Virus record (IMG/VR): IMGVR_UViG_3300013121_000018 | Location: 1-64,000 of that record | DNA: 64,000 nt | From: a virus | Lineage: Duplodnaviria > Caudoviricetes | Reading direction: 5' to 3' (one strand) | Shown here: in pieces, positions 2-36,810 of the stretch | Layout: each line of letters begins with the position of its first letter | Position numbering within the stretch: position 1 is the stretch's first letter | Position numbers and translations under genes: made by a program | The notes under the pieces: model-generated | What the model was told of the DNA's origin: nothing | Database searches by the model: none | What the model saw: the letters and a program-made list of their open reading frames with translations, nothing else

Positions 2-1852
2 TGTTAGTGTGTAATTTGTGCTTTTGGTTGCATAGGATGGATTTGAAATAGAAGAAACAACTGTTTCTATTTTATCATAAACAGCATTTTTAGTTGGAAC
101 TTCTAAAGAACCATTCCATGCTACTCCATAGGCTTCATCTGGCACAACTACATCATCTGCAAACGTACCCAATCCAGTCTTGCTTACTTTAAACTTGCTA
201 GCCCCACCAACCTGCAAATCCATTAACAAACTATTAGAATTAGATGCTGTATCAGTAACATTCAGCTTAATAGCTGTTGGTGTTCCCGACGTATTCCAAG
301 TAGGCAAAAGCTCTAGTATTGAATCTGCTTTACTTCCACTTCCTGCTGAATAAGTATCAGTTAATTTTATCCTACCGTTGTCTGATTCTATGAAATAATA
401 ATCAGCAGCAGAAGTAAGAGTTGGGGAATTATAAAATGTTCTGACCTTTCCATTTGCCCCACCAGTTTGATTAATAACCGCAGAAAATTCATACGCTGCA
501 AATGAACCAATACCTGTTGTTGTTGGGGCATATCCAAGATTATTCCAAAATCCCCTATGTGTAGTGTTATTTCCGGTTTGTGAATTTGTTCCGATTAATT
601 TTATACCATTTGATATAGTGGTGGCAAACGGCATAATATTAAATCCATCATTAAATGAAATATAAGATGCTCCGGTACCAAAAGATACTGTTGAGTATCC
701 ACCTATACCACCTGCAACATATAAACCGGGAGTACCTGAGCCGGGATCTGTTGCATAAGAAAGTGCTGTACTATATGCACCTCCCGCTATAGAATACCTC
801 AACCTCCAAGTACCCTGTCCACTATTACTACCTTGTGTTGGTAATACTTCCATTAGATAGTCTATGGTCTGAGAACCAGCTACGGATGCAGTCTTATATC
901 CATTCCCTCTAAACCTCAGCGGTGGGGATGATTGTTGATTCCCTAATGTAGCAGTTGTATTATTAACCAAGGAAATCCCATAAGAATTATCCTGTGTAAC
1001 ACCAATCGAATTTCTAGTAATATCCAATCTTGATGATGGTGAACTTACTCCAATACCAATCCTACTATTAGCTTCATCCAAATAAAGAAGACTTGTTCCA
1101 CCTGATGTTCTAAACTCCACTGGTACAGCAGATGTCATGGTGTACAGGGATGTTGGAGTAGTAGTTGAAACAGAAGATACAACAGATAATGCACTAAGGG
1201 CAGAACTTGGACTAATTGTTACATTGGATGCTGCTGTTATTAATCCTTTACCATTTACGGTAAACTGTCCTACTTGAGAAGCAGAACCGAATGTACCTAC
1301 ATTAGAATTAACTGTTGCTAATGTAGTTGCATTACTGCCTTGTGAGGCTGTTATGTCGCCTGTAAGAGCAGCACGACTTAATAGAGGTGTACTATCAGTA
1401 TACACTAAAGAAGAGTCTACCATAGCCCCTACAGCGTCCTGAGCATCTTCATCTGTATAACCTACAGCAGTGTATTCACTAAAGTCAATAAAAGCTTCAA
1501 CATATCCGCTATAAGCTTTTATAACACTTCCTACAACTTGAACATTTGAAGGAGATGTTGTAGTTATTTCTCCAGAAGTATCTGAAAGATACAGAACATC
1601 CCCTTCATTAAAAAGTGATAAGACATTGTCAAGATTTATCTTACCTAATTTAAGTATTTGACCAAATTTGCCAGCTTCTATTTTTTCAAGAGTAATTCCT
1701 ACAGCTTTATTACTTAAAGCACTGGCTAAACTTATTACAGGGACATTATTATCCCAAGTATCGATATAAACAAGTTTCTTTTTTTCTATGAAATCAGAGC
1801 TTATATTTTTACCAATAAAAACCTCTCTTTTGTTAAAAAAATTTTCTGACAT
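2..1852 (-). CDS. tail/head fibre-like protein, partial (runs off the left edge)
   Basis: Not in the ORF track because there is no stop in the window. ATG at 1852 gives MSENFFNKREVFIGKNISS..., with Ser/Thr/Gly-rich fibre motifs (LTGDITAS, VGQFTVNGKGLITAA, RIGIGVSSPSSRLDI). Confidence 0.75.
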   Translation of the reverse strand, partial: MSENFFNKREVFIGKNISSDFIEKKKLVYIDTWDNNVPVISLASALSNKAVGITLEKIEAGKFGQILKLGKINLDNVLSLFNEGDVLYLSDTSGEITTTSPSNVQVVGSVIKAYSGYVEAFIDFSEYTAVGYTDEDAQDAVGAMVDSSLVYTDSTPLLSRAALTGDITASQGSNATTLATVNSNVGTFGSASQVGQFTVNGKGLITAASNVTISPSSALSALSVVSSVSTTTPTSLYTMTSAVPVEFRTSGGTSLLYLDEANSRIGIGVSSPSSRLDITRNSIGVTQDNSYGISLVNNTTATLGNQQSSPPLRFRGNGYKTASVAGSQTIDYLMEVLPTQGSNSGQGTWRLRYSIAGGAYSTALSYATDPGSGTPGLYVAGGIGGYSTVSFGTGASYISFNDGFNIMPFATTISNGIKLIGTNSQTGNNTTHRGFWNNLGYAPTTTGIGSFAAYEFSAVINQTGGANGKVRTFYNSPTLTSAADYYFIESDNGRIKLTDTYSAGSGSKADSILELLPTWNTSGTPTAIKLNVTDTASNSNSLLMDLQVGGASKFKVSKTGLGTFADDVVVPDEAYGVAWNGSLEVPTKNAVYDKIETVVSSISNPSYATKSTNYTLT

Positions 1853-1865
1853 TGTATCAAATTTA

Positions 1866-2228
1866 TTATATGTCTTTAGTTGGTTTTGCCAACCACTCTA
1901 TAGCCTTTTGTCTTTGAAGTTCAAGAGAATCTTCAGGTTTAATAAAACCCAATTCTCTTAAATCTTTAATGGCTTTAATTATAGCCGCTTCTTGTTCTCG
2001 TTCTTCTTGTTTTCTATATCGTCTGTATCCAAAAAAAGCAGGTAATCCGAATGTACCTATAGCAGTTCCAATAATCGTTATAAGTATTGGAACATCGTTT
2101 AAAGTAATAAATAAAAACGTGCCAGAACCCAACGATACAATTATATCATTAAAGTGAAACTTAAATGATTGAATATAATGTTCAAACATAGATTTATGTT
2201 GTATTTTTAATACCCCTATCATAGTCAT
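1866..2228 (-). CDS. small membrane protein, holin-like
   Basis: Two hydrophobic segments followed by a basic/charged C-terminus; lies in the late module. Confidence 0.4.
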   Translation of the reverse strand: MTMIGVLKIQHKSMFEHYIQSFKFHFNDIIVSLGSGTFLFITLNDVPILITIIGTAIGTFGLPAFFGYRRYRKQEEREQEAAIIKAIKDLRELGFIKPEDSLELQRQKAIEWLAKPTKDI

Positions 2229-2269
2229 GGTTGTTAGTAGTTGTGTTTGTGTGTGGGATATTATTATTG

Positions 2270-4021
2270 TTAACTATTTTCTAGCAATTCAATTCTATTG
2301 AGAAGCAACTGCAATGTTTCTTTTAATTGTTTATTTTCTTCGTAAAGTTCTTTTACACCTTGTAGGGCAATTGCTCCAATGGCAGAATAAGATACACCTT
2401 TTATACCATTTAAACCTTCTGAAACTATTTCTGGATAAGCTTTTTCAACCTCTTGTGCAATAACTCCAATATGAGGTCTATCACCATTTTTAAGTTTAAA
2501 AGATACTCCTCTAAGATTATCAATATTGTCTAAAACACTTAATGTCTTAATATCATATTTAAGTCTTTCATCAGAAGGGTCTTTCCAACCAGTAACACTT
2601 TGGTCACAGTAGGCAACTTCAAATCCCCCATCTTGTATAAGTTGAAAGGTATGATTGGTTGCTGCGGCTGTCCTAAATCCGTATGCACCGTTACCTGCTG
2701 TTGATATACCGATACCACCACTAGGAACACATACAGGAGCCAAAGAACTTAAATCTGCATTACCAAATAATGATATTGTACCAGAGGAAGTATTATATAT
2801 ATGTAATCCTTGAACCCAGTTTGCACCTACTTGATTATTACGTGTCCAAAACTTAAATGCTCCTGCATCATTACCAGTATCATTACCAGTGGCTATTAGA
2901 TTAGTTACATTATCACCTGAACCACCATCATATACAGTCTTAATAATAAGACCTCCGAAATCTGCAAAATCAGCTTCTGTAATACTACCTAATCCACCTT
3001 TTAGAGCAAATACTGTAGAATCAGCAGCACCAAAACTACTACCAGTTGGTAGGGCAGAAGTACCATATTGTAACTTACCGTTGAATTTCTTAGTACCAGA
3101 GCTAATAGTTTGGTCAGTTGTTAAGTCCACAAAGCCTGACGAGAAATAAGTTCCCATAGCAGCTTTCTTATGAGTAGCCGTATCATTGTCATAAATCATA
3201 ACACTATCTAAAGTATCAAAACTAGATAGGGTAGTTAACTCTGGTATATTGGGTGCTATGCTAATATTATTAGAAGTATTAGTAATATCCAAACCGTTTA
3301 CTTGGTCTGTTACACCAGTAACAACACCAGTGGCAGCAACGGTAAGTGTTTGACCCACCCTACTTAAACTAATGTTTGCACCAGAGGCTAAGTTAACATC
3401 TGTGCCCGTAGAACTGTTTAGAGTAAATGGTGTAGTAGAACCTGACCATGTTAAATCAGTTGCTCCACCACCACCAGAAGCAGTAATGGTTAATTCATTA
3501 GCAACTCTTGATAAAGTAACACCAGAACCTTCTGCAAATGTTACACCAGTACCAGTTGAACTGTCTAGAGTAAAAGGAGAAGATGCTCCTGTAAAACTAA
3601 GATTAGTTGGGCCACCACCACCACCTGCAATAGTATCAAGGGCTGTATCAATCTTAACCATTAAATCTTCTGTAAACAATTGATTCTCATTTCCAGAGAT
3701 GTTGGCAATCCACGGTATTAATTCATAGTTGGTAGAACCTCTTGATATTGCAGCATTGTTTGTAGTAGGAACAGATGTAATACCTGTTACACCTACATTG
3801 CTTACTTTTAAAGTAGCACTAGAACCAGAGGCAGAAACTACTTCTGTAACTTCTAGTTGATAAAATTCACCACTATCTGTAAATAGAAGAAAGTCTCCTA
3901 CTGTTATTTCTGTAGTATCAAACTGACCACCGGGGTCATTGAAGTTTGTAATGGCTACTTGCCAATAACCACTACCACTTCCATTTTGTGATACAGCACA
4001 TTTTCCTGTAAATATTCTCAT
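2270..4021 (-). CDS. fibre protein with C-terminal intramolecular chaperone (peptidase S74-like)
   Basis: C-terminal SDERLKYDIK...HIGVIAQEVEKAYPEIV...coiled coil; internal tandem repeat TNLSFTGASSPFTLDSSTGT / TDLTWSGSTTPFTLNSSTGT; shared N-terminal domain with the next fibres. Confidence 0.8.
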   Translation of the reverse strand: MRIFTGKCAVSQNGSGSGYWQVAITNFNDPGGQFDTTEITVGDFLLFTDSGEFYQLEVTEVVSASGSSATLKVSNVGVTGITSVPTTNNAAISRGSTNYELIPWIANISGNENQLFTEDLMVKIDTALDTIAGGGGGPTNLSFTGASSPFTLDSSTGTGVTFAEGSGVTLSRVANELTITASGGGGATDLTWSGSTTPFTLNSSTGTDVNLASGANISLSRVGQTLTVAATGVVTGVTDQVNGLDITNTSNNISIAPNIPELTTLSSFDTLDSVMIYDNDTATHKKAAMGTYFSSGFVDLTTDQTISSGTKKFNGKLQYGTSALPTGSSFGAADSTVFALKGGLGSITEADFADFGGLIIKTVYDGGSGDNVTNLIATGNDTGNDAGAFKFWTRNNQVGANWVQGLHIYNTSSGTISLFGNADLSSLAPVCVPSGGIGISTAGNGAYGFRTAAATNHTFQLIQDGGFEVAYCDQSVTGWKDPSDERLKYDIKTLSVLDNIDNLRGVSFKLKNGDRPHIGVIAQEVEKAYPEIVSEGLNGIKGVSYSAIGAIALQGVKELYEENKQLKETLQLLLNRIELLENS

Positions 4022-4027
4022 TTGTTA

Positions 4028-6118
4028 TTATTGACTACTTCTTAAATATGTTAATGTTCCCATCTTGCCCACAATGTCACCTGAGCCACCGCCGCCGCCA
4101 CCAGCCTGGGCTGTTAGCTTTATGATGTTGGTATTAGTGAAAGTTAGACCCGTGATGTCGGTTTCTTGGGTGTAGCCAGTGGTCGCATTTGAATTCGTAG
4201 TCAGTGTAGCGTATGCACGAGCAGTTGTTGCGCCAGTTCTAATTACAATCACCCTGACTGAGCCATAACCAGTATTTGATATGGTTATGGCACCACTGTC
4301 AAAAAAATTTGTACCACCGAAGTAAGCCCTGATTGTGGCTGTGCTTGTATTATCAGTGAATTGCAAGTTAAAATCCCCAATAATTTTTTCACCAGTGGCC
4401 GATAGCCTGTTTGCGACAGATGTATGGCTGAATATATCAGTTTCAACAGTAGTTCCATTTGAAACATCAGAAACAAAATCAGCTAGAACCAATACCGTTG
4501 GCCGTTCTATGGGCCTATTGTACGCAAACCTGTTTCCAACAATTACTTCATCTGCATATATAGTGGTTGCGTTTATATTCCCAGCCACAAGTGATTCAGA
4601 ATAGTGCCTCTTGGTTGAGATTGAAACAAGTTTTGTGGCATCATAATCAGTGTAAAATATATGGCCATTGCCTGCGGCCATTGCATATCCGGTTGTTCCG
4701 GTAATTGTCTTAACATAAGTAGGAGACGCTGGATTCGTTACGTCAATAACAACAATACTGTTTGTGCCGTACCCGGACACATACAATATTTTATCCAAAA
4801 GAACCATTGTTATTTCCCCACCTCCAGTAAATTGAGTAAACTGGGTAGAACTTATCTGCGTCAATGTACCCGGATTGCTTGCATTGTAAATATTCAGATA
4901 TTTTGAACTTCCTTCACCGGTTAAATAAAGGTATTTACCATCGCAGACCATCGCCCTTGGATTCGTAAGACTTCCCGTACTAATTGTATCAAGGAACGTC
5001 ATTGATAATGGATTGCTTATATCAATACTGGCCACACGGTTAGCATCTACAAGACTAATATAAGCAATGTCGCCAAACACGCAGACCTTGCTTCCTTGAG
5101 ATGTAGCTCCTATGTTGGTGACACTAGAAAGGATTGCTCCGTTATCAAGGCTCCATGCCCTAAAAGCATTTGTGGCTCCCGTTGCATACAACACCCTACC
5201 CCTTATAAATCCTCCCAATGTTGGTTGATTTCCAGAAGTGGCTATTTTCCGAGCAAACACAGGAGATGTTTTATTTTTTATACTGTAAATGGCTACTGCC
5301 CCCGCACTACCACCAGAATCATTGATGACATACAGGGAATCTCCTTCCGCATACACATTGAATGGACGAAGTATGTTTGTTGCATCTGTTGTTGTGGAAA
5401 CCAGCGTTGGGGATGCTGGATTGGAAATATCAAACACGCCAATCCTTTTTGATGAAAAGTTCATCACGTAGGCATAATTTCCAAGTATGCACATAGATTC
5501 TGGTGTTCCAAGGTTTGTTGCACTTGTTACAGAACCCTTTTCTTCAATATCAGTGAGATTATAGTTGCCCCAACCAGTATATCGTTCGTTTCCATATATA
5601 TCTAAAATAAATGTTGAATCGTTCCTCACATAAGTTGTATCTATGTCTGATACATTTATTGCATTTAATAAACTATCAATAAGATAACACATGTATTCAT
5701 TGACCATTTGATTATCATTACCAGATGTATTAGCTGCCCAAGGTGGTAATTTAAAGTTTGTGGAACCTCTGGAAATAATTGCAGGGGTTGTTGGAATAGC
5801 TCCAATAGAAGTAATTCCAGTATTATTAAGTCTTAGAGTAGCAGTGTTACCAACAGCACTTACTATCACAGTGATTGGTAAGGCTAAAGATGTACCACCA
5901 TCATTGAAATAAACAATATCATCTACTTGAAGTTCAGTACAATCCGTTCCTCTAGGACTACTATAATTTGTTACTGATACTTGCCAGTAACCTGCTCCAG
6001 AACCTGTTTGAGCAATATTACACTTACCTGTAACAATACCTGTAAATTCAACAGGGTCAGTTTGTGCAAATATTGACAAAGGTAAAAGAAACAGTAATAT
6101 ATTAATTAGTTTTTTCAT
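4028..6118 (-). CDS. signal-peptide-bearing fibre-like protein with LVIVD-type beta-propeller repeats
   Basis: MKKLINILLFLLPLSIFA|Q; repeats such as GNYAYV...IGVFDISNPASPTLV, IDISNPLS, VIDVTNPASPTYV; shared N-terminal domain. Confidence 0.7.
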   Translation of the reverse strand: MKKLINILLFLLPLSIFAQTDPVEFTGIVTGKCNIAQTGSGAGYWQVSVTNYSSPRGTDCTELQVDDIVYFNDGGTSLALPITVIVSAVGNTATLRLNNTGITSIGAIPTTPAIISRGSTNFKLPPWAANTSGNDNQMVNEYMCYLIDSLLNAINVSDIDTTYVRNDSTFILDIYGNERYTGWGNYNLTDIEEKGSVTSATNLGTPESMCILGNYAYVMNFSSKRIGVFDISNPASPTLVSTTTDATNILRPFNVYAEGDSLYVINDSGGSAGAVAIYSIKNKTSPVFARKIATSGNQPTLGGFIRGRVLYATGATNAFRAWSLDNGAILSSVTNIGATSQGSKVCVFGDIAYISLVDANRVASIDISNPLSMTFLDTISTGSLTNPRAMVCDGKYLYLTGEGSSKYLNIYNASNPGTLTQISSTQFTQFTGGGEITMVLLDKILYVSGYGTNSIVVIDVTNPASPTYVKTITGTTGYAMAAGNGHIFYTDYDATKLVSISTKRHYSESLVAGNINATTIYADEVIVGNRFAYNRPIERPTVLVLADFVSDVSNGTTVETDIFSHTSVANRLSATGEKIIGDFNLQFTDNTSTATIRAYFGGTNFFDSGAITISNTGYGSVRVIVIRTGATTARAYATLTTNSNATTGYTQETDITGLTFTNTNIIKLTAQAGGGGGGSGDIVGKMGTLTYLRSSQ

Positions 6119-6128
6119 TGTATTTTGT

Positions 6129-6602
6129 TTAATAGTAAACTCTAATGTGAACTAAGAATTCATTTGAAGTAGCAGGGTCTGTAGCTGTCAATGAACTGCT
6201 CAAGGCATATACATCAACAGTATCATCTGTAGCTCTACCAACAATATAACTTCTAGGATTAGAACCTCTTGTTTGTAAAGAAGCATATCCTGTAGTTTTA
6301 TTTGTAGGGAAGGCTCCTGCCAAAGTACCAGTATATACACCCGTTGTTTTATAAGTCCAAACAACTGTTCCGCCAAGTTCGTTTTTATAAACTGTTGCTA
6401 TAGGGGCATCTGTATTTACTTGTGATAATAAAGCAATATATTCTTTTGGTGGAACATTTTCAGAAGAAGTTGTATCTACTACACCAGAAGCGTCAACTCT
6501 AATAACACCAGCATCATCCAATATGGCATACTTAATTTGAGCCTCACCAAAGGCTAACCAAAATAGAAGTACAGTGGCTAATATAAATTTTAAGTATTTC
6601 AT
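6129..6602 (-). CDS. secreted hypothetical protein
   Basis: Signal peptide MKYLKFILATVLLFWLAFGEA|Q followed by a beta-rich domain. Confidence 0.6.
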   Translation of the reverse strand: MKYLKFILATVLLFWLAFGEAQIKYAILDDAGVIRVDASGVVDTTSSENVPPKEYIALLSQVNTDAPIATVYKNELGGTVVWTYKTTGVYTGTLAGAFPTNKTTGYASLQTRGSNPRSYIVGRATDDTVDVYALSSSLTATDPATSNEFLVHIRVYY

Positions 6603-6603
6603 T

Positions 6604-7965
6604 TTATTTTATTTTAAAGGCTACTGTGTATTCAATTAATTGTCTTGTGCCTGTAGCATTATCGGTATCGTAACTAATAGTTACTCTATTATTTATAACA
6701 TCTGCATAGGAATCTGCACCATATAATACTGCTGGAGTAGTTTGCCTTTGATTAGTAACATTACCAGTCACATCATCTTCAATATCATCTAAAGTAGATG
6801 TAATTCCCGGAGGGTAACTAACTCTAAAAGAGGAAGCAATTGTACCAGAAGCATTGTTTAATAGAACCTTACCCATGATTATACAGTTATTACCCATTCT
6901 AAAATATTGATTAGAATATACAGTAACAATAGTGTCAGAAGCAACGTTCTTTGTAATAGTAGGTGTATAAGAACCACTTTGAGCAAAAGAACCTATATCA
7001 TCATCAGATACCAAATAGGCAATTTCACCCAAGTTAACCAATACAAATTTAAATATTCTTGTACCAAAGGCACTTATCTGCATATTAGGCATGTCTCCGA
7101 AAATACCATCATCTGTACCAAATGGTGTAAATACACCAGATTCAAAACTTACTGCAATAGCATCTTCTGTATTATTAAATACTTCAAAAACCCAACTATC
7201 ATTGGTATTTTGAGAAACTTCATTGGAAACATTCAATGTAATATTACCATTGGCAGAAGTATAAAAATAATTACCACTATTAAGATTATAGGTAGTTTGT
7301 CCTAAAGCACCATAGGCAACAGTTACTTTATTATTACTATTTACTTGAGATGCATTTTTAGCTGTAGTTCTATTCCACCAATCATTTTTTAATTCCAACA
7401 TTTGACCTCTATTTTGCCATTGTGCAAAATCACCATTTTCAGGCGTTTTACCAGAAGGAGAAAATACAGCAGTATCCAATGTGGCAAAAAATGAACCATC
7501 ACCAAGAGCCATAATACTATCAATAAGGTATACCATATATTCTTGTGCCAATTGATTATTATTATCGGACATATTGGCAAAGAAAGGAAATAAACCAAAG
7601 TTGGTTGTTCTAGCAGTAATTGCACCAGATGTTGTAGGTACAGAAGATATACCTGTGATGCCTACTTTAGATACTCTTAGGGATGCAGAAGAACCAGAGG
7701 CAGATGATATTAGGGTAATTTCTAAAAGATATACTACTCCTGCATCATTTAGATAAACAAAATCTCCAACTTGAATATCAGAAGCATCACCAGCAACACT
7801 GTTGAAATTGGTTATACTTAAAAACCATTCATCGGCATCTCCACCAGTTTGTGTCATATCACATTTACCTGAAAAAACCCTTACACCAGTTTCACTTTGA
7901 GCGAAGGATGTAAGGGTTATTAAAGTAAACATGAATGTTAATATACAATTGTATATATATTTCAT
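6604..7965 (-). CDS. signal-peptide-bearing fibre-like protein
   Basis: MKYIYNCILTFMFTLITLTSFA|Q; shared N-terminal domain; C-terminal SGSYTPTI...YFRMGNNCII fibre-tip-like domain. Confidence 0.65.
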   Translation of the reverse strand: MKYIYNCILTFMFTLITLTSFAQSETGVRVFSGKCDMTQTGGDADEWFLSITNFNSVAGDASDIQVGDFVYLNDAGVVYLLEITLISSASGSSASLRVSKVGITGISSVPTTSGAITARTTNFGLFPFFANMSDNNNQLAQEYMVYLIDSIMALGDGSFFATLDTAVFSPSGKTPENGDFAQWQNRGQMLELKNDWWNRTTAKNASQVNSNNKVTVAYGALGQTTYNLNSGNYFYTSANGNITLNVSNEVSQNTNDSWVFEVFNNTEDAIAVSFESGVFTPFGTDDGIFGDMPNMQISAFGTRIFKFVLVNLGEIAYLVSDDDIGSFAQSGSYTPTITKNVASDTIVTVYSNQYFRMGNNCIIMGKVLLNNASGTIASSFRVSYPPGITSTLDDIEDDVTGNVTNQRQTTPAVLYGADSYADVINNRVTISYDTDNATGTRQLIEYTVAFKIK

Positions 7966-7976
7966 GTTTTATGTTT

Positions 7977-8909
7977 TTAGAATCCAGAGAATGATAACAG
8001 ATAACCTTGACCACCGATTGACATACCAGAAGCCCTGATGACAATATCATTGCTAGAAGCACCAATAACAGTTAATGCGGGGTTGTTATCATTGTCAATT
8101 GACATACCGTTATTGGCAGCCAAAGCACCAGCATTAGGAATAGAACCCTTTTGTACTTGTGGTACTCTTAGGGTAGTTACACCAGAGTTTCCATCCAAGT
8201 TAACAAAGGTTACAGTAATCCAATCTGTAAAGCCACCAGCATCAGCAGCAGCTTGGACATCAGCCGATACAACAATAAGATGGGCAGAAAGTAGAGTTTC
8301 ACCAACTGGAACTGTAATAGTATAATTGTTACTTGCATAAGAGCAAGTAGTACCTGTAGCAGTAGCAGTGACACGAAGGCCAGAACCAGCATTACCTCCT
8401 GTAATGCTGACGTTTTCTTGTACGATAGAAGAACCTACCGGAAGATTATCAATGTCATATACTCTAATAGAACCATCTGCTAGAAAACCAAGAAGGAAAT
8501 CACCAGCAGCAGGAGCGGCTTCTTCAGTAATATCAGCTAAAGCTGCATCGGAAGGTGCACCAGAAGTACCAGCATTACGAACCTTTACAGTCCATGCAGC
8601 CATATTTGCCATTTTAGCATTGGTTATTGCAGTATTATCTACAGTCCAAGTTGCACCTGAACCGGATACTGTAATATCACCTTTATCGCCATCAGAAATC
8701 CCGCCTGCACCAATAGTAATATCACCGGCATCAATTGCACCTTGAACAACTTCAACAACGCTATGAGCATAATTTCCAGAACTTGCCAATGCTAGTTTTG
8801 CACCACCAGTAGTTGTACCATTAATAGGATTTTCGTATCTTCCTTGATCAACTTTATTTAAAGATGCAGGAATGAGAATGTCTCTAGGGACACGTTTTGT
8901 ATTTGCCAT
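7977..8909 (-). CDS. virion structural protein (head-fibre-like)
   Basis: DGDKGDITVSGSGATWTVDNTAITNAKMANM motif typical of phage fibres; Ala/Gly/Thr-rich. Confidence 0.55.
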   Translation of the reverse strand: MANTKRVPRDILIPASLNKVDQGRYENPINGTTTGGAKLALASSGNYAHSVVEVVQGAIDAGDITIGAGGISDGDKGDITVSGSGATWTVDNTAITNAKMANMAAWTVKVRNAGTSGAPSDAALADITEEAAPAAGDFLLGFLADGSIRVYDIDNLPVGSSIVQENVSITGGNAGSGLRVTATATGTTCSYASNNYTITVPVGETLLSAHLIVVSADVQAAADAGGFTDWITVTFVNLDGNSGVTTLRVPQVQKGSIPNAGALAANNGMSIDNDNNPALTVIGASSNDIVIRASGMSIGGQGYLLSFSGF

Positions 8910-8982: not shown

Positions 8983-10443
8983 TTAGAGAAAATAAGTTGT
9001 AGATGTTGCTTTACCTTTTACCGGAAATGCATTAAATGCTTGACAGCCTTGTAACCAATCTCCAAGAATATCTTCTAATGAAGCAACGGTTGTACCATCT
9101 GTAGTGGTTGAAGGAATAGCATCTGTAGTTCCCAAATTGGTAACTGCTGCGTTTACATCCACACAGGTATTAGTTGCTTCAAGCAATATAATCAGTTTCT
9201 TAAACGAAGTTTCGTCCGTAGTAAGAGTAGATTCATTATCGAAAAATTCTACAATAAAAGCATTGTAATTTTTGGTAGTATCTACATAAGTTTTACCTTC
9301 ACTGAAGAATTCGCCATGTGGTTGATTCTGCATAGTGTGGGTTTGCAACCTTGCACTATTACTGTCAAAAATACCCCATTTGCGGCCACTACCAATTTCT
9401 TCTTTACCAGCAACAGTTGTTTTATCAACTCCTGTTTCATCAACGCGGAAACCACCAGAAAGGTTCAAATCAACCTGCACTTGAGTTTGGTCAATGTTAT
9501 CAAAGTAAGCAGAAGTGTTTTGGCTTAGACCAATGATTACTAGACAGTTAGTTGCAGTTGTGCTTGCAGCATAAGCAACTGTACCTGCAGTTTCCAAATC
9601 AATTACTTCAATTGTAGATACCGCAGTAACAGGATCTGTTACGTCTGCATTAGCAGCATGATCAACGATAAGTTGTGCCAAAGCAGAAATCAATTTCTTA
9701 TCAGCAGTAAAAACAATATCGTTTGTACCATCTGTTTGAATAGTAATTGAATCTCCGCAATCAATATCACCAATTACAGTACCATCACCGCCATCGGTAT
9801 TAATAGCAAGAACAATAAAGTCCTTATTGCCGTGAGGCAATGCACTATTACTTACACCGGAAAGACGGCTTCTACGATTAAGTTTATAAGCAAGGTTTTT
9901 AATAACCCAGTCGTTCATGTCAGTAGCAGTCGTAGGACTTACTACAGATTCAAAAGCGACATTATCGTTATCAGAATAGTCCCTGTCATCACGAACACTG
10001 TATTGGAATGCATATGCACCAAAAGTTGTTTCAGCGTCAAATGCATTAAAATCAGTAAATGCTTGAAGAGAATATCGGCCGGGATTATAAAAGCTTGCGG
10101 AAAAACCTTGGATTTTATCACGATTGATAATAGCAGATTCTACATAGGCAGGATCTGAAGTTTCCCAAGGAGTTACTTGTGTAATATCAGTGCTGTTAGG
10201 AGTGCCTTGAATTACTTTAATTGCGGTTACATTCGATGCAGTCGCTGTATTTGGACACCAGTCCCCAAGCGGCTCAGCAGAACTATTAAAATCCCAAGAA
10301 AGCATACCAAGCTTTCCATTTGCGATATTAACAGTTGTATTGGTAGCAGCAAGTGTACCAGTACTTTGTAGAGCAGTATTACCACTACCTACTAAAATTT
10401 TGACAAGATCGGCTTGTCTTTTGTTTGTACGTTTAGACGCCAT
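8983..10443 (-). CDS. auxiliary capsid/structural protein
   Basis: Position downstream of the MCP block as in crAss-like phages; Thr/Ala/Asp-rich, 486 aa. Confidence 0.55.
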   Translation of the reverse strand: MASKRTNKRQADLVKILVGSGNTALQSTGTLAATNTTVNIANGKLGMLSWDFNSSAEPLGDWCPNTATASNVTAIKVIQGTPNSTDITQVTPWETSDPAYVESAIINRDKIQGFSASFYNPGRYSLQAFTDFNAFDAETTFGAYAFQYSVRDDRDYSDNDNVAFESVVSPTTATDMNDWVIKNLAYKLNRRSRLSGVSNSALPHGNKDFIVLAINTDGGDGTVIGDIDCGDSITIQTDGTNDIVFTADKKLISALAQLIVDHAANADVTDPVTAVSTIEVIDLETAGTVAYAASTTATNCLVIIGLSQNTSAYFDNIDQTQVQVDLNLSGGFRVDETGVDKTTVAGKEEIGSGRKWGIFDSNSARLQTHTMQNQPHGEFFSEGKTYVDTTKNYNAFIVEFFDNESTLTTDETSFKKLIILLEATNTCVDVNAAVTNLGTTDAIPSTTTDGTTVASLEDILGDWLQGCQAFNAFPVKGKATSTTYFL

Positions 10444-11154: not shown

Positions 11155-12282
11155 TTAATATCCTTCTAATTTTACTCCTTTTGTACGAAGTTCTTTCAGA
11201 AGAATACCGTAATAATTTGTCAGTTCATCTTCTCCATTATATGCTTCAAATTCGAGATAAAGTCTGTTTATCAGAGAATCAAGTGAATCAAATTTATACA
11301 TGTTTGCTGTACCAACTTGTGAATGCCATACATAGAAAGAGTCCCTAATGTTAAATACATTTGTGTTCAAAGCTTGTTGAACCAGATACTTAATATTAAA
11401 ACGAGCAATACCATCTTTAGTAGAAATTTCATCAATAGCTCTCATGAAGTTATCAATGTGTTTCATCTGATGATCAGATGTCGTTGTTACATATTCACTC
11501 AAAATATTGTTAACCCTTTCAGAAGTAACATCTCCTACAAGAATTGGTTCACCACGATAATCTTTAAGAACTATAGCAATTTGATATGCTCTGAAAACAC
11601 CTAAATCGTGTTTTAGTTTATATAGATTATATGTAGCTCTTTCAATAATGTCATTGCGCAATTGACGTTCTTCTTCGTCTTCGTTTTCTTGTGAAACATA
11701 CCATGTATGAAAGGCACTGTTAGCAATATTTTTATTAGGAGCAATTGCAGGAACAACTTCAATCATTTCCATCAACATTTCCTGTCGAGGAGTATCATTA
11801 CAAAACCTATTAGGTCTAGGGTCTAAAGAAAGTGTTAGTTTTTCAAGAAAAGTCTTTTCACCTAATTTAGCATTAGGATTCAACATACTAAAAGTCATTT
11901 TTTCAGTATAGAATCCAGGAACTACTCCATGTTTTATTTCATAATAAATTTGCCGAGTAATCATACTCTGCCTAGAAATAGCATCCAATTTTTCATCAGA
12001 CCATTCTTCAGGAACATTATATTTATTACGAATTTCTTCGACGGCCATACCCTTAAAAGGATTTTCCCGTTCTTTTCCAAGATTTGTTAACAATTTCCCA
12101 GTTTGATGATTTGCAGGGAATTGATAAAGTGTTGGTACACCGTCCTCTTTAATTTTATTCATAACACGAGTAGGAATCACCTCACCTGTGTTTGTTTGAA
12201 TAGTATAAATTTGTTTGTGTCTACCTTGATAGGAAATCCTAGGAACAGGATTTACCCAAATAATTTTTTTTCCAGATTTCAT
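11155..12282 (-). CDS. conserved crAss-like virion (cargo-type) protein
   Basis: Synteny between the MCP and the ring protein; 375 aa. Confidence 0.45.
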   Translation of the reverse strand: MKSGKKIIWVNPVPRISYQGRHKQIYTIQTNTGEVIPTRVMNKIKEDGVPTLYQFPANHQTGKLLTNLGKERENPFKGMAVEEIRNKYNVPEEWSDEKLDAISRQSMITRQIYYEIKHGVVPGFYTEKMTFSMLNPNAKLGEKTFLEKLTLSLDPRPNRFCNDTPRQEMLMEMIEVVPAIAPNKNIANSAFHTWYVSQENEDEEERQLRNDIIERATYNLYKLKHDLGVFRAYQIAIVLKDYRGEPILVGDVTSERVNNILSEYVTTTSDHQMKHIDNFMRAIDEISTKDGIARFNIKYLVQQALNTNVFNIRDSFYVWHSQVGTANMYKFDSLDSLINRLYLEFEAYNGEDELTNYYGILLKELRTKGVKLEGY

Positions 12283-13007
12283 TCTTTTTCTTTTTGAAGC
12301 TGTGCATAATATGTCACTAATACATTAGCAACTATCTTAGCAAATTCTTTTCGTTTTTTTAGTGTATTTCTCATTTTATTCGGTATCTCTAACTGAACCG
12401 CAATAACATTAGGATAACGCTTGTAAATCTCTATACAATAACCACCATTAAAATATGGTTTAGGTTTCTCTGTAAAAGATGAAGGATAACAAAGTATTTT
12501 TTCAGAATATATTAAATTTCCTAGTAATATTTCTTTTTCTGTAAAACCTTTTTCTTTATCAAAACCAATTTCTAACATTCCATGTTTGTGATTTTGACCA
12601 TGAATATCTACATATAATATTACAGAATCAGACCAAATATTATTCATAATTGCTTTCTGTATATCATGATGATATTGATAATATAATTTACTTAGCTTTT
12701 TATCCACAAAAGCACTATCAACTTCTCGATTATAATCTATTTCTTTTCTGCTATTATTTGCATAAATAATCGATGGTTGTTTTCTTATCTTATATTGTAT
12801 TTCCTGAGAAATCAATTTTAGAACTTCTATAGTATAACTATCTTTAGTTGTTACACCAAATGTTCTATTTTTTATTTTGTTGGATTCAATAGAACCTCCA
12901 TGGGGGGCAGACAGTATAATAGGAATGTTTCCATCCACTGTTACAATGTCTTGCCCACATGAGAGATTGGAGAATAAAAAGAAAATACCAAATAATAGGT
13001 ATTTCAT
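12279..13007 (-). CDS. N-formylglutamate amidohydrolase-like (Zn hydrolase fold) protein, probable lipoprotein
   Basis: PIILSAPHGG, DYNR, VDIHGQ, FNGGY, AVQLEIP motifs; N-terminal hydrophobic signal ending LSC. Confidence 0.7.
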   Translation of the reverse strand: MKYLLFGIFFLFSNLSCGQDIVTVDGNIPIILSAPHGGSIESNKIKNRTFGVTTKDSYTIEVLKLISQEIQYKIRKQPSIIYANNSRKEIDYNREVDSAFVDKKLSKLYYQYHHDIQKAIMNNIWSDSVILYVDIHGQNHKHGMLEIGFDKEKGFTEKEILLGNLIYSEKILCYPSSFTEKPKPYFNGGYCIEIYKRYPNVIAVQLEIPNKMRNTLKKRKEFAKIVANVLVTYYAQLQKEKE

Positions 13008-13018
13008 TTTTTATTTTT

Positions 13019-14641
13019 TTAGAAGCTTGCAGCAAAGTTTGGTTGAACACGACCTACACGGGTAGTATCCCAAATAGTCAAGTCACCGGAAGTTTCACGG
13101 TAAATACCGCATTCTTTGTTGTTGCTATAAACGTTTGTGCCAGTCCTTTCAGCACCGGTTTCAAAATCATATACGTTACAAACAGTAAAGTATGATTCTA
13201 CACCATCTTGCATTACCATTGTAATGTTTTCTGAACGAGTCGCATCTACCGATTTCTGGTTAGTTGCACCCCAGTCAAAAATATCCATTGCATAAGATTC
13301 TGCAGTACGGTTTGTACCCGGAGCTTTAATTGGGAACAGTTTGCGGTCATCCTTAATCGGGTCATAAACCATCTGCAATACATAACCCATAGGCAACATC
13401 AGTTTTGTAAACTGAGCACCGAATTCAAGTTCATTTTCATGATAACCTTGAGGATCTGGACGCTTACGAAGGAATGTAGTGTCGATGTAAGAGAACTGTG
13501 ATGCTTCTTGAGCAACAAGCCTGTTCAAAAATTCGATACCGCCTTCACCAGTAGCAAGCATTACATTACGATCAGAGAATGTTCTACGTGTAAGGAAGAT
13601 TTCAGCAATGTACTCATAAAGTTCATTAAGAGTCAAAGAACCGTTATGTTCTTTGTAGTGACCATCACGAGCATATTGACGCCATCCAGCACCACGCTTC
13701 AGAGTTCTAGAGCTATCAGGATCTTCACCTTTGTAGAGGTGTCCAAACTCCATGTGGAGTTCCCTGTCCATCAAGATTCTTTCTTCCAAACGGGCTTCAA
13801 TCTTAGATACAAATACACCAGCTTCAATCAATTCAGGTTTACCGCCATTAGTTACATTCATCTTTTGTTGATAAACATAACCTACGCCGATAGCACCATC
13901 ATAATATGATTTGCCACCAATATTGTAACCTTGATTCTTAGGCATAGAAGAGCCTGACTTACGGCAACCGATTTCAGTACGAATAAATTTGTCAGTAAAT
14001 TCTGCTTTACGAGCATAGTTACCAACCCAGCCTTGCAGCTTAAACATTTCACCATACTGATCACCTGCATACTTGGTGTTAAGTTCATCTGTTACCGCAG
14101 TGGTAATATCGATGAAACGACGACCAGGATTGAAGTATTCGGCTGGAATCCAAGCATTCTTGTCAGAAGTCAGAAGAACAGCTTCATACAACCATGAGTT
14201 AACATCAATCTGTTGTGGAGATTGAGAAGTAATCATGATAGGTGGAAGATCAGGATGCTCACATTTAAGTACTACTGGAGTGTGCAGCCAGTCACGGTCT
14301 AGTTGAAATTGGAACGGCATTCCTGCTTTACCAACCTGTGCATCCGCAGCAAATGGATTCGTAGTAGAACGGAAATCAACATCCGCATCTGCAATCAAAG
14401 ACCATTCGTAGTCGTCTGTACCCGGAGGCAAAAGAAATACGTTTCCTTTAGCAACAGTGTAATAAGTAAATTTTTTGTTCACCAGATGTGAACCAAGTTC
14501 TGCCGAAAATAGTTGTGCGTTCCTTACACCGAAGTTAAACGGTTTATATTTTCGGAACATTTCCGCATGTGTGTAACTGTCATAGTAACTGCCACCAAAT
14601 GCTTTGCGTTCAACTGTTTGTAGTTGTGTACGTCTTACCAT
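13019..14641 (-). CDS. major capsid protein
   Basis: 540 aa; follows portal and acidic scaffold; DDYEWSL, TGEGGIEF, LEFGAQFT, G.LTIWDTTR motifs resemble crAss-like MCPs; high-expression codon bias. Confidence 0.85.
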   Translation of the reverse strand: MVRRTQLQTVERKAFGGSYYDSYTHAEMFRKYKPFNFGVRNAQLFSAELGSHLVNKKFTYYTVAKGNVFLLPPGTDDYEWSLIADADVDFRSTTNPFAADAQVGKAGMPFQFQLDRDWLHTPVVLKCEHPDLPPIMITSQSPQQIDVNSWLYEAVLLTSDKNAWIPAEYFNPGRRFIDITTAVTDELNTKYAGDQYGEMFKLQGWVGNYARKAEFTDKFIRTEIGCRKSGSSMPKNQGYNIGGKSYYDGAIGVGYVYQQKMNVTNGGKPELIEAGVFVSKIEARLEERILMDRELHMEFGHLYKGEDPDSSRTLKRGAGWRQYARDGHYKEHNGSLTLNELYEYIAEIFLTRRTFSDRNVMLATGEGGIEFLNRLVAQEASQFSYIDTTFLRKRPDPQGYHENELEFGAQFTKLMLPMGYVLQMVYDPIKDDRKLFPIKAPGTNRTAESYAMDIFDWGATNQKSVDATRSENITMVMQDGVESYFTVCNVYDFETGAERTGTNVYSNNKECGIYRETSGDLTIWDTTRVGRVQPNFAASF

Positions 14642-15781: not shown

Positions 15782-18412
15782 TTATTTTACGCTACTTTTA
15801 TTTTTAATCTTTTTTTCTTCTATTTCCTTTCTCATTGACATCTCTTTATCTTTTTGGTCAAGTTTTCTTGCCTCTAGATTCAGTTTTTGATTGTCAACAT
15901 TTTTCTTATGAAGAAGTTCTGGAGATTCTCCTTCCTCTTCTTCTTCTGTATCATTGCTTCTTACTTCGGCAACTTTTACTTGCCACATTCCTTGACGGTC
16001 AACTTTACTTAGTTCAAAGTTTTGAGCATTCTCAATTTGTCTTTGTTGCATTTGAGCAATCTTTTCTTGAGATTCTCCTTTAATCTTTTCGAGTCTTTCA
16101 AGTCTTTCCTGTTGCTTTTGAGATTCAATTGATATTAATTTGTGTACTTCTTCAGGAGAAGCTCCTGCGGTAATACTCTTAATTAAAGATGAAATTGATT
16201 CTAAACCTTCACCAGCATTCTGAGCAAAAGCATGTGACATGTTCATCATGCTATTAATATACTCTTTACTATTACTACTATCAGTAACAAATAATCCCAT
16301 TTGAACAGGGTCAAGCATTTTCTTAGTTATCTTGAAAAGTTCTTTTGTACCATCAGGTAAGATGTAAGACAAACTATGTTCTTCCATATCAGGATTGGAT
16401 TCAAATATCCTTTCACAATATGTTCTGAAATTCTTTAGATAATCTTCAAACAATTGTCTCCAAACCTCATTTACATAAAAGAAGTATGGTTCAGTAATAA
16501 AACTGGATTGAACCAAAGCTTGTTGATTATCTGAAACATTTGTATTAGGGGCAACCATAGCCTCTCGTTGAGGGGGAATACCCATTGCAATACCCATTTC
16601 AGCTTCAATAAGTGAAAGAAGGTTTTGCAGAACAAATATTTCTTGTGCAGTACCGATAATATGACCAGCAGAACCAGGACTTCTAGTAGAAGGTGGGAGA
16701 CCACCTAAAGAGTTCTGTGAACCAGAATAGAAGTTAATACCGGTTTTCTTACGGTAAATCATCCAGGTTGCTATAGGGTCTTTAATCAATTCACCATTAA
16801 TATCTTTACCAAGTTCTGTTGGAATCTGGTCAACATCAACATCATTAATATATCCTTGATACTTAGCAAGTTCTCGGTTTTGAATATGCTTTACATAAAT
16901 ATACTGAAAGTAATAAGGTAAAGCTCTTTCCAACAGAGAAACTGATTTAGCATTCCTAGAAGTAAATATTGCACCGAAAGTAGATAAATTAAATGAAGAA
17001 TATGGTTCTTCAATATTAATACTTTGAAAAGGTACTTCTCTAGCAATAGGATAAATATCATTACCTAAACGTACAACCTCATACTTTCTTGGAATCCACA
17101 GTTCTTCTGCTTCAAAATATTTCTCTGATAGCGGATCAAACCAGACATGCTTTTCACTTTCATTTCCAAATTGATTTAGAAACTTTACTTTTTCAGCATA
17201 ATCCGGAATTTCAAAATCTTCAGGTACAACTTCAGTTATACGCTTCTTTCTTTCATTATCATATGTCAGAAATAAAACTTTCCTGAAAGCTTTAAACTCT
17301 ATATGAGTTTCCCAAATAAATCTGTCTTTACTGTGTTTTCTATTAACACCTGCGCCTTGATGCAAGCCCACACGTTTATCATCACTGTGTCGTGTAGAAT
17401 CATTAAAGAATTCTTGTAGAGTGTGATCAAATACAGCTTCTGACTGAGCACCATCAGCACCAAGTACATTGTGTCTAGGGTCAGAAATATTTGTTACGTG
17501 CGTATAAACACCGAGTCTTTCAATGTCAACATCGGATAAAAGATGCCCATAAGAGTTATAAACATCTGCAAGAGAAATTGGTTTCTTGTACCAAAAATAA
17601 TCACCTTTATTAATAAAGGGTTCATTTGGATCTTTTAACCAACCTGAATAAAGAGGATTCCTTATTTCAAAATAAGGTTTACCAAAACGCCATCCAGAAT
17701 AAACAAAAAACCTGTCCACTATAACAGTGTCTTCCATAGTTTCTTGTTTCTTCATTTTGTAAGATTGGTCATACATACCATACTTAATAGCATGGTTGTA
17801 GAATATTTCCCAATCTGTAAGGAAGTCTTTTTGTGCTAAGTCTTTTGGTTCAAGTTTGGTTCTAAGTTCATCAACCTGCTGTTTTGCTTCTTCGGGAGAC
17901 AATCCTTGTTGTTCAAGTTTCATAGCTTCAACAACAAGTTGTAATTTTTCTTCTACAGACTTTTGTATTTCCTGATAACGAAGAACATTCTTTTCTGCAA
18001 ATACTTTTGGTGAAAAAAGATTGACAATAAAGTTGTCATTTCTTTTAAGAATCTCTCCTTTTAAGAGATTTACCTTTGTATGTAACTTTGGATACGGAAG
18101 AATTTCTTCTTCAATGTTTCCAAGGTTTTCTCCAAGTGGATTGCAGAATTCATCCAATTGTTTTTTAAATCCTTCAAGATTGTTATTATAGACTTCGTAA
18201 AGAACTTTCATTCCCTCATAATCATCTATAACAGCAGTGTTTGCAGGAAGTATATAAGCTATATAATCCTTAAACCATTGCTTATCATTTGCATACTTTT
18301 CTTCTTCAGAAACCCGCAAAGAAAACATCGGTATTGCTTTAGATGTTTTTCTATTCTTTGCAGGATTCGTAGGAAAAAATGTATCCTTTACATGTTGTGA
18401 GTAATTGCTCAT
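15782..18412 (-). CDS. portal protein
   Basis: 876 aa; GIPPQREA, TNVSDNQQALVQSS.ITEP.F motifs and C-terminal coiled coil; synteny TerL-portal-scaffold-MCP. Confidence 0.85.
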   Translation of the reverse strand: MSNYSQHVKDTFFPTNPAKNRKTSKAIPMFSLRVSEEEKYANDKQWFKDYIAYILPANTAVIDDYEGMKVLYEVYNNNLEGFKKQLDEFCNPLGENLGNIEEEILPYPKLHTKVNLLKGEILKRNDNFIVNLFSPKVFAEKNVLRYQEIQKSVEEKLQLVVEAMKLEQQGLSPEEAKQQVDELRTKLEPKDLAQKDFLTDWEIFYNHAIKYGMYDQSYKMKKQETMEDTVIVDRFFVYSGWRFGKPYFEIRNPLYSGWLKDPNEPFINKGDYFWYKKPISLADVYNSYGHLLSDVDIERLGVYTHVTNISDPRHNVLGADGAQSEAVFDHTLQEFFNDSTRHSDDKRVGLHQGAGVNRKHSKDRFIWETHIEFKAFRKVLFLTYDNERKKRITEVVPEDFEIPDYAEKVKFLNQFGNESEKHVWFDPLSEKYFEAEELWIPRKYEVVRLGNDIYPIAREVPFQSINIEEPYSSFNLSTFGAIFTSRNAKSVSLLERALPYYFQYIYVKHIQNRELAKYQGYINDVDVDQIPTELGKDINGELIKDPIATWMIYRKKTGINFYSGSQNSLGGLPPSTRSPGSAGHIIGTAQEIFVLQNLLSLIEAEMGIAMGIPPQREAMVAPNTNVSDNQQALVQSSFITEPYFFYVNEVWRQLFEDYLKNFRTYCERIFESNPDMEEHSLSYILPDGTKELFKITKKMLDPVQMGLFVTDSSNSKEYINSMMNMSHAFAQNAGEGLESISSLIKSITAGASPEEVHKLISIESQKQQERLERLEKIKGESQEKIAQMQQRQIENAQNFELSKVDRQGMWQVKVAEVRSNDTEEEEEGESPELLHKKNVDNQKLNLEARKLDQKDKEMSMRKEIEEKKIKNKSSVK

Positions 18413-18759
18413 TTATTTAATACTGTATTTACTTTTAAGTGTTTATGTAGTTCATCTACAAGCCAACCTAAAAGATAACATTCAAATTCATCATTTTCCA
18501 AATCTGGTCTTTGCATTATGTCTTTCATAATATAGTTGACAGCATGATTTGCTTCATGCGCAACAATTCCTGGTGTACAAGAAGATTCTTTAAATAAAAG
18601 AATTATTAGTCCCTGTCGCATATAAACAGTCAGAGCATTGTAACCGTTGTCTGATTTATCTATAACAAGATTTGCTTTTTCAATGGCCTCACTTAAAGTA
18701 GGTTCTTGATAAACTTCTATCTTATGGAAAAACAGTGGAACCTTTAGTATCTTCTTCAT
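18409..18759 (-). CDS. small HExxH metallopeptidase-like protein
   Basis: IVAHEANHAV...NDEFECYLLGW. Confidence 0.55.
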   Translation of the reverse strand: MKKILKVPLFFHKIEVYQEPTLSEAIEKANLVIDKSDNGYNALTVYMRQGLIILLFKESSCTPGIVAHEANHAVNYIMKDIMQRPDLENDEFECYLLGWLVDELHKHLKVNTVLNK

Positions 18760-20279: not shown

Positions 20280-20744
20280 TTAGTTGTCATTTAAACCTAA
20301 TTGTTTTATAAGTCTTTTTAATTCTGATTTGTTTTTTATCCAACCTTTAAATATGTCTTGCCAATCGAAACTGCTTTTAGCTTCTTCATATGGCACTAAA
20401 AATCTCCTTATGTATACATTGTAATATGGAGTAATAAATCCCCATCTTTCTCGTAATTCTTCAGCATTACATTCAGAAATCCATAAGTTAAAATTTCCTT
20501 TATTTGCAAAATAAAATGAAGCTGTATATTTTTCATGTGGAAGAGGATCCATTACAAAACCTAATTCTTCAGCGTCTTGTCTATCAATACATTTTACACG
20601 AACTCTATCTCTTTCAATAGCATCTTTTAAATCAAACTGAAAATCCCAAGAAAGTTTTTTCCATTCATTTGATACTGTGAAAACTTCAAATTCAAAACCA
20701 ACATGAAATTCATCTATTGTTGGTGTATAGTACTGTTCTTTCAT
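20280..20744 (-). CDS. hypothetical phage protein
   Basis: YYTPTIDEFHVGFEFE...IKNKSELKRLIKQLG, a pattern common in Bacteroidota phages. Confidence 0.55.
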   Translation of the reverse strand: MKEQYYTPTIDEFHVGFEFEVFTVSNEWKKLSWDFQFDLKDAIERDRVRVKCIDRQDAEELGFVMDPLPHEKYTASFYFANKGNFNLWISECNAEELRERWGFITPYYNVYIRRFLVPYEEAKSSFDWQDIFKGWIKNKSELKRLIKQLGLNDN

Positions 20745-36483: not shown

Positions 36484-36789
36484 ATGAAAAAATTATTATT
36501 ACTAGCATTTATTAGTTTGAGTGTTTGTTCTTATGCTCAAACCATTGGTCTTGAAATGGGAGCAAATCTTATTTCAGACAGAAAATTATTTCATGACAAT
36601 ACTCTTAACTGCCAACCACGGCCATTCACCTATGTTGGAGTGAATTATCAAATCAAAAGTATAACGACAAGACTGACTTATACTTTTGATTTACACATTA
36701 TTACTATTGGGTCTAGTATCCAATTATATAATGTGAATAGAAAAAGTAGAAGTTATGCTTTAATAAACAGAAACTATAACAAACATTAA
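36484..36789 (+). CDS. secreted beta-rich protein
   Basis: Signal peptide ending CSYA|Q; amphipathic strands. Confidence 0.55.
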   Translation: MKKLLLLAFISLSVCSYAQTIGLEMGANLISDRKLFHDNTLNCQPRPFTYVGVNYQIKSITTRLTYTFDLHIITIGSSIQLYNVNRKSRSYALINRNYNKH

Positions 36790-36810
36790 ACTATTAAAAT
36801 TAAAAAAATT

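Follow-up and report, generated by a model that had tools for sequence, protein, structure and literature searches.

A shared N-terminal domain and predicted secretion leaders on fibre-like proteins of an uncultured crAss-like phage

The window described here comprises 64,000 bases (bases 1-64000) of the 107,581-base IMG/VR virus record IMGVR_UViG_3300013121_000018, the completeness of which is estimated at 97%. It contains, close to the start of the record, a block of fibre-like genes in which three paralogues share an N-terminal domain of approximately 125 amino acids (aa), hereafter N-domain; two of these paralogues and a small neighboring protein begin with a predicted secretion leader. 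Judged from its genes the phage is crAss-like with a host among the Bacteroidota, and the window holds its late structural arm. An earlier reading of the DNA made without database searches (the sequence-only reading) had already pointed to crAss-like phages. The assignment is borne out because the Crass-type major capsid protein matches Crass_capsid (PF23898, 111.7 bits with a cut-off of 27, E 4e-32) and because a portal and a large terminase (TerL) with PHROG matches of E 1e-58 and E 1.9e-55, respectively, are encoded.

Fibre-like genes, their common domain and their leaders

The four open reading frames (ORFs) of interest are listed below; a slash marks the predicted cleavage site.

2270..4021, minus strand: P0001, 583 aa, leaderless paralogue; N-domain (3629-4021), Gly linker, two repeats of about 48 aa, fibre shaft and S74 intramolecular chaperone
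4028..6118, minus strand: P0002, 696 aa; predicted 18-aa Sec/signal peptidase I leader (6065-6118, ...SIFA/Q), N-domain (about 5657-6043), LVIVD/lactonase-type beta-propeller and beta-rich C-terminal region
6129..6602, minus strand: P0004, 157 aa; predicted 21-aa leader (...FGEA/Q), no N-domain, 1-nucleotide (nt) gap to P0003
6604..7965, minus strand: P0003, 453 aa; predicted 22-aa leader (7900-7965, ...TSFA/Q), N-domain (7510-7884), beta-sandwich and receptor-binding-head-like domain (residues 325-453, 6607-6993)

The N-domains of P0001 and P0002 are 50% identical over 129 aa (E 6e-36), those of P0001 and P0003 48% over 128 aa (E 1e-28) and those of P0002 and P0003 46% over 157 aa (E 1e-31). 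The alignment of all three extends over about 125 aa with 43 invariant columns, and the whole 107.6-kb record contains exactly three copies. The common domain proposed in the sequence-only reading is thus confirmed, with significant similarity in every pair. No pairwise match of significance was found among the three proteins past the N-domain, and the unrelated C-termini that had been proposed for them (S74, LVIVD and fibre-tip-like) were confirmed by Pfam for two and are suggested by fold matches for the third. P0001 matches many tail-fibre PHROGs and Peptidase_S74 (PF13884, 60.6 bits with a cut-off of 22, E 1.8e-16); its SDERLK motif of Ser...Lys self-cleavage starts together with the Pfam match, at residue 483. 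P0002 matches LVIVD (PF08309, 47.1 bits with a cut-off of 20.2, E 1.4e-12) and the lactonase 7-bladed propeller (31.7 bits).

The C-terminus of P0003 has no Pfam or PHROG match. Its model shows two beta-rich domains behind the N-domain, the last of which (residues 325-453) resembles trimeric attachment heads, so that the description as fibre-tip-like probably holds at the level of the fold. The best match is avian reovirus sigmaC (Z 9.9, 120 residues aligned, root-mean-square deviation 2.9). The next six matches have Z values of 8.0-8.3 and include reovirus sigma1 heads (8.2), the Dettilon tailspike and the receptor-binding protein (RBP) of Listeria phage PSA (8.1); adenovirus, lactococcal and pyocin tips match more weakly in the fold search. 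The model of this part has a predicted local distance difference test score (pLDDT) of 75-89 and was built on an alignment of 7 sequences. A search of BFVD with the head delivered 327 phage matches at E<=1e-3. Residues 51-90 of P0004 resemble the start of the C-terminal domain in the N-domain proteins P0014 and P0012 (E 2e-07), and P0004 may represent an exported tip or an assembly partner of P0003.

The AlphaFold model of the N-domain (pLDDT 94.2, predicted template modelling score 0.86) consists of a six-stranded beta-barrel (residues 5-93) followed by a long helix (residues 110-133). No family of Pfam or PHROG covers the domain. The viral folds that rank highest in BFVD belong to N-terminal portions of phage tail fibres, with weak matches (best E 1e-4).

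The leader of P0002 is MKKLINILLFLLPLSIFA/QT, while those of P0003 and P0004 end in ...LITLTSFA/QS and ...LLFWLAFGEA/QI. All three show the succession of n-, h- and c-regions (n-h-c form). The n-regions contain Lys (MKK..., MKY... and MKYLK... in P0002, P0003 and P0004), the h-regions reach a Kyte-Doolittle mean of 2.5-3.0 over 9-10 residues and are free of D, E, R and K, and the cleavage contexts combine a small residue at -1 (IFA/Q, SFA/Q, GEA/Q) with a permissive -3 and Gln at +1. By sequence these N-termini have the textbook form of Sec/signal peptidase I (SPI) leaders that obey the Q-rule of Bacteroidota (Bochtler et al. 2018, PMC5837995; PMC10653852). The leaders were called with a crude rule-based classifier, so the calls carry no score of a trained predictor (SignalP); the classifier flags 8 of the 103 genes of the phage, with no core cytoplasmic protein among them. 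The sequence-only reading, which had placed Sec signals before Gln on these three proteins and none on the S74 copy, agrees with the n-h-c form and the small residue before Gln found here. P0001 starts with MRIFTGKC, directly in the N-domain, and has no room for a leader because the upstream stop is only 6 nt away. A lipobox with Cys at +1 is absent from P0002 and P0003 (context A/Q, sizes 696 and 453 aa). Among the C-termini inspected by eye, none shows an obvious sorting domain of the type IX secretion system, and the Pfam census contains no family of such C-terminal domains.

The N-domain family and its exchangeable tips

An N-domain profile was searched against 1.84 billion representative proteins and found 120 proteins at E<=1e-3, in most of which the N-domain starts at residue 20-30. 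The family as counted here comprises 127 proteins, mostly representatives of 50%-identity clusters. A leader followed by Gln at +1 is present in 113 of the 127 proteins, with a median leader length of 18 aa and with A (49), S (35) or G (28) at -1 in 112 of the 113. Among the remaining 14 proteins three look truncated at the 5' end, P0093 is leaderless but was set aside as atypical, and ten are truly leaderless. Leaderless copies begin within 2-7 residues of the predicted mature starts.

Orthologous leaders vary in sequence while the n-h-c form is kept, a pattern expected under selection for export; the P0003 orthologues P0017, P0019 and P0027, for example, retain a diverged leader. Taken at the sequence level, the leaders look genuine. 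The P0001 orthologues P0008-P0010, with N-domains 85-88% identical to that of P0001, are likewise leaderless.

In a quick maximum-likelihood tree (128 columns, unrooted) the leaderless proteins occur in three places: a clade of seven members including P0001 (approximate likelihood ratio test 98), P0011 with P0015, and P0042 alone. P0011 and P0015 adjoin P0013, a leader-bearing S74 fibre. Because all three placements are nested among leader-bearing rows, the leader-bearing state, which is that of the majority, is apparently also ancestral, with two or three losses (a rough count, given the tree) and with the leaderless S74 copy as a derived form. The sequence-only reading had treated leaderless fibres as the norm and the exported copies as the oddity; this framing has to be inverted. 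It is a new finding that in this family the leader is the rule, with the leaderless S74 copy placed in a small and apparently derived clade.

A side observation concerns the helix of the N-domain. At residues ~124-128 of P0001 (window ~3638-3652) leaderless members have D-E, D-D or D-T, and in most close relatives that bear a leader the helix reads I-D-S-[LI], a sequence that coincides with the O-glycosylation sequon of Bacteroidota. The contrast of Ser with Asp/Glu in this conserved motif is suggestive, but the leaderless rows represent only two or three lineages and are phylogenetically non-independent; it has no statistical standing and is not relied on here.

In a sample of 44 members the modules at the C-terminus include GDSL/SGNH esterases, sialate O-acetylesterase (SASA), BNR sialidase-like, beta-helix, LamG, GH32/GH130 and S74 domains; LVIVD propellers and knob heads likewise follow the N-domain in the family. 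To judge from these domain matches, the modules span the range of tips known from receptor-binding proteins and depolymerases of phages. At least 15 clusters with less than 50% overall identity have nearly identical leaders and N-domains, the signature of tip swapping under a constant anchor. The pattern of one N-domain on paralogues with unrelated tips is present in this genome and across its relatives, which supports the modular domain with swappable tips of the sequence-only reading.

The exchange of tips also crosses the boundary between the two kinds of N-terminus. P0006, encoded next to P0003, is leaderless in the window; its C-terminal tip of 160-190 aa recurs on the leaderless N-domain protein P0042 (52% identity, E 2e-47) and, in metagenome contig L018, on a protein with a leader (60% identity, E 6e-71). 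S74 fibres occur with a leader in P0013 and without in P0001 and P0011. That the same tips move between leader-bearing and leaderless N-termini is a further new observation. The protein on L018 (1185-2288, ENA contig ERZ724505 NODE-11725) has 367 aa, the leader MKFKIFSILFALSLAIGASA/QG and the P0006 tip, and is directly followed by a leader-bearing N-domain protein.

Members of the family were found only on uncultured metagenome or virus contigs. Tblastn against 50,697 deposited phage records gave no match to the N-domain, and megablast against deposited phages likewise found none. No confirmed relative emerged when 185,579 species genomes of prokaryotes were scanned with two narrow patterns, a result that does not prove absence from cellular genomes, and scans of viral contigs with alignment A2, P0021 and P0049 delivered nothing useful. 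A contig retrieved via P0063 was rejected; it shares C-terminal parts only and has neither the N-domain nor a crAss capsid.

Genomic setting

The late structural module is the minus-strand arm, which extends from about 23 kb down to base 1. Further genes of this arm are as follows.

2..1852, minus strand: another fibre-like protein without a leader, at least 617 aa long and truncated by the record start
1866..2228, minus strand: P0005, 120 aa, membrane protein encoded right after the fibre block, holin-like by position only
7977..8909, minus strand: P0006, 310 aa, leaderless fibre-like protein with an N-terminus of another kind
8983..10443, minus strand: P0007, 486 aa, conserved late protein that adjoins the fibre block on its upstream side, with synteny in a distant crAss-like relative; candidate partner in the tail or hub
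13019-14641, minus strand: Crass-type major capsid protein (PF23898)
15782-18412, minus strand: portal
18722-20203, minus strand: GroEL-like chaperonin between the portal and terminase genes (PHROG E 4e-80, Cpn60_TCP1 E 4.6e-28)
20741-23092, minus strand: large terminase

The order is thus terminase, chaperonin, portal, capsid, five proteins without an assigned role and the fibre block. The genes from 10443 down to 1852 are separated by gaps of 1-73 nt, no terminator-like sites are found in these gaps, and the genes probably form one late operon. For Bacteroidota a sigma-70 promoter scan carries no information. P0006 and P0007 are named as candidate partners of the N-domain solely from position and synteny; sequence searches of the PDB with these two and with the neighboring 375-aa and 232-aa proteins gave no match. 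The product of 2..1852 carries a ...AYGVAWNGSLEVPTKNAVYDKIE... motif, which we take to be shared with other Bacteroidota phage fibres.

The genomic context of two relatives, the IMG/VR crAss-like contigs L007 and L008, was examined. L007, the longer one, shows the order major capsid protein, P0007 homolog (36% identity, E 3e-66), leader-bearing N-domain fibre, second protein with a Q-rule leader, lipoprotein and membrane protein, so that its N-domain gene occupies the same place in the late operon as in the window. The only N-domain protein found on L007 carries a leader, and on one 12.4-kb contig both reported N-domain proteins (P0013 and P0018) are leader-bearing. In L007 (IMGVR_UViG_3300020037_000918) the Crass_capsid match at 1437-4055 falls into two pieces with a 274-aa ORF between them, the N-terminus of which (...TQIAERLKVSRTTVH...) resembles a DNA-binding motif; the capsid gene looks as if interrupted by an insertion or intron.

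Predicted export signals also occur elsewhere in the window. The 242-aa protein encoded at 12279-13007 (minus strand), between the capsid and tail genes, has a predicted leader ending ...SNLSCG/QD and weak matches, below the Pfam cut-offs, to N-formylglutamate amidohydrolase (E 5e-4) and poly-gamma-glutamate hydrolase (E 3e-3); it may be an exported amidase or peptidase within the structural module. In the plus-strand arm, four neighboring genes at 36484-39659, three of them encoding less than 220 aa, all have predicted export signals: those starting at 36484, 36811 and 38664 have SPI leaders with Gln at +1, and that at 38227 has the lipobox LSSC. A gene for a 123-aa membrane-like protein (37446-37817, plus strand) lies among them.

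Possible fate of the leader-bearing proteins and comparison with known systems

Fibres of tailed phages are taken to fold and attach in the cytoplasm. The leaders suggest that in this lineage a large share of the proteins for host recognition mature outside the cytoplasm, the compartment in which particles of tailed phages are assembled. The reading that we consider to have about an even chance of being correct is that of a modular fibre anchor, the exported cargo of which reaches its mature form in the periplasm and encounters the particle at lysis. The barrel-helix module would act as a trimerising anchor, holding every fibre at one shared site of either the tail or a primary fibre. Leader-bearing fibres would be translocated by SecYEG, cut by SPI, capped with pyroglutamate by the host glutaminyl cyclase and folded in the periplasm, and would meet the cytoplasm-built particles only once the holin opens the inner membrane, whereas the leaderless S74 fibre could dock earlier, in the cytoplasm. 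If attachment is a late self-assembling step, either route would give a functional fibre, which would explain gain and loss of leaders on the same domains. The wider proposal that a large crAss-like lineage assembles its virions in two compartments, with most fibres Sec-exported, pyroglutamate-capped and clipped on at lysis by the shared anchor, and with leaders repeatedly lost and regained, is held more tentatively, a little short of even.

Incorporation into the virion is favored because the anchor is kept on every leader-bearing member, with no leaderless copy seen in some relatives, and because a cultured phage provides a parallel. The proteins gp085-gp087 of Cellulophaga phage phi18:3 (GenBank NC_021794) have leaders ending S/Q, A/Q and A/Q and are annotated in GenBank as structural or tail proteins 'based on experimental MS/MS proteomics analysis' (tandem mass spectrometry, MS/MS). 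We found no paper that comments on these leaders.

Several points weigh against this reading. Docking on the virion or trimerisation is suggested for the N-domain because of its N-terminal position on an S74 fibre and its weak fold matches to tail-fibre N-termini, and fold searches of the PDB gave generic beta-barrels only (best Z 8.6), with no fibre, tail or hub chain of Bacteroides phage PhicrAss001 among the matches. The fibres gp22-gp26 of PhicrAss001, the one crassvirus with a solved virion, are made without leaders, so that Crassvirales as a whole do not share the trait. Between the phi18:3 proteins and the N-domain there is no homology, that phage is not crAss-like, and envelope proteins that co-purify with virions may also be detected by MS/MS. 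Export, cleavage and presence in virions are predictions for the N-domain family. Host O-glycosylation was considered as a reason for export. The sequon D[ST][AILVMT] is not enriched in the leader-bearing fibres; it was observed 5, 3 and 2 times in the leader-bearing proteins (3.4, 2.4 and 0.8 expected) and 7 times in the leaderless P0001 (3.0 expected), so that this motive finds no support in the genome.

Alternatively, the exported paralogues may never join virions and instead act on the envelope of the infected cell, where they would bind or degrade receptor or capsule from the periplasmic or the surface side, blocking superinfection, easing release or keeping progeny off debris, with the leaderless S74 fibre as the only virion part. 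Export indeed parts the proteins from the cytoplasm in which heads and tails assemble, the esterases, sialidase-like domains and beta-helix enzymes of the family could strip receptors, and the phage appears to encode several more Q-rule or lipoprotein exported proteins in its early arm; Q-rule proteins of Porphyromonas gingivalis prophages have been suggested to modify the outer membrane (PMC10367356). We nevertheless regard this account as rather unlikely. A decoy needs no fibre anchor, yet the N-domain stands at the very N-terminus of all 113 leader-bearing proteins and is visibly constrained. Phages with leader-bearing N-domain proteins only, as on L007 and the 12.4-kb contig, would be left without an anchored fibre of this type. 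The genes are located in the late structural operon, apart from the early exported proteins, their products have neither a lipobox nor the small-protein architecture of T5 Llp, and leader-bearing proteins are reported from phi18:3 virion preparations. Virion incorporation and an envelope-acting role, the former at lysis and the latter as decoy or blocker, are the two fates named in the sequence-only reading, and they could also coexist.

The hydrophobic N-termini might also remain uncleaved, as signal-anchors that hold the fibres at the inner membrane until holin triggering or that have another structural role in the particle. Signal-arrest-release (SAR) endolysins are parked at the inner membrane in this way, timing control would be a plausible benefit for late, sticky proteins, and a hydrophobic N-terminus alone cannot separate a cleaved leader from an anchor. 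This explanation appears improbable given the short hydrophobic cores (with the leaders so short in total), the N-termini of leaderless relatives, which almost coincide with those predicted for the mature proteins, and the small residue and Gln that stand almost invariably at the expected cleavage distance, a signature of cleaved SPI substrates in Bacteroidota (PMC5837995). Very improbable, finally, is an artefact of gene calling in which translation really begins further downstream and the leaders belong to sequence that is not translated. Bacteroidota have no strong Shine-Dalgarno sites and the choice of starts is generally uncertain. The DNA of P0002 and P0003, however, is free of ATG, GTG and TTG from the hydrophobic core up to the conserved GKC motif, and alternative starts occur only inside the core or past the motif, so that the downstream internal starts considered in the sequence-only reading can be dismissed. 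In addition, intergenic gaps of 1-11 nt make the leader codons the sole upstream sequence, and an open frame with n-h-c form is kept in 113 proteins, mostly from separate 50%-identity clusters.

If a widespread group of crAss-like phages sends its host-recognition proteins through the periplasm, virion assembly would have a step outside the cytoplasm. Fibre function could then require the Sec system, SPI and glutaminyl cyclase of the host, and perhaps folding or modification in the periplasm. The RBPs of these phages would be missed by pipelines that drop signal-peptide proteins from 'virion' sets. The same anchor with and without a leader in one genome is a natural control, which makes the question directly testable, and with the 125-aa domain the genes for receptor binding can be sought in a phage group that is uncultured. 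Both modular fibre anchors and Q-rule leaders have been described, each by itself; no description of Sec leaders on tailed-phage fibres was found in the literature. The window adds a defined anchor family, its census and the contrast of leader-bearing and leaderless copies within one genome.

Anchors comparable to the N-domain are the N-terminal parts of branched RBPs in the T7 gp17 family, K1-5/SP6, G7C (gp63.1/gp66) and CBA120 (TSP1-4). As here, one module is found on paralogues with unrelated tips within a single phage, tips are freely exchanged between phages, and both enzymatic (esterase, sialidase, beta-helix) and S74 tips occur. The barrel-plus-helix fold of the N-domain has no convincing PDB match to these anchors, and we know of no branched-RBP anchor protein made with a secretion signal. 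Among exported superinfection-exclusion proteins, T5 Llp, Cor and TP-J34 Ltp resemble the exported paralogues in being phage-encoded and envelope-directed and could mask receptors. Proteins of the T5 Llp type are small lipoproteins unrelated to the RBP of the phage and are not fibre paralogues, whereas SPI leaders are combined here with full fibre architecture.

The leaders themselves share with Q-rule SPI substrates the n-h-c form, the small residue at -1 and Gln at +1, in all three proteins of the window and in the 113 of the family. Those substrates are cellular envelope proteins (PMC5837995, PMC10653852), whereas the present ones are fibre-like phage proteins in a virion operon. Prophages of P. 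gingivalis also encode Q-rule proteins, to which no function is assigned (PMC10367356). Phage phi18:3, a cultured Bacteroidota podovirus of the Pachyviridae, is like the window in having large late proteins with Q-rule leaders. PhicrAss001 differs in the gene order around the capsid gene and in showing no N-domain similarity in tblastn of deposited phages or PDB fold searches. It is like the window a crAss-like podovirus with a late block of several fibre or spike genes, enzyme-like and lectin-like tips and adjoining membrane or lysis genes, and its lysis genes come after the fibre block, as P0005 does here. In its virion a short N-terminal part of gp22 docks in the tail hub and further fibres attach to gp22 (Bayfield et al. 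2023, PMC10172136).

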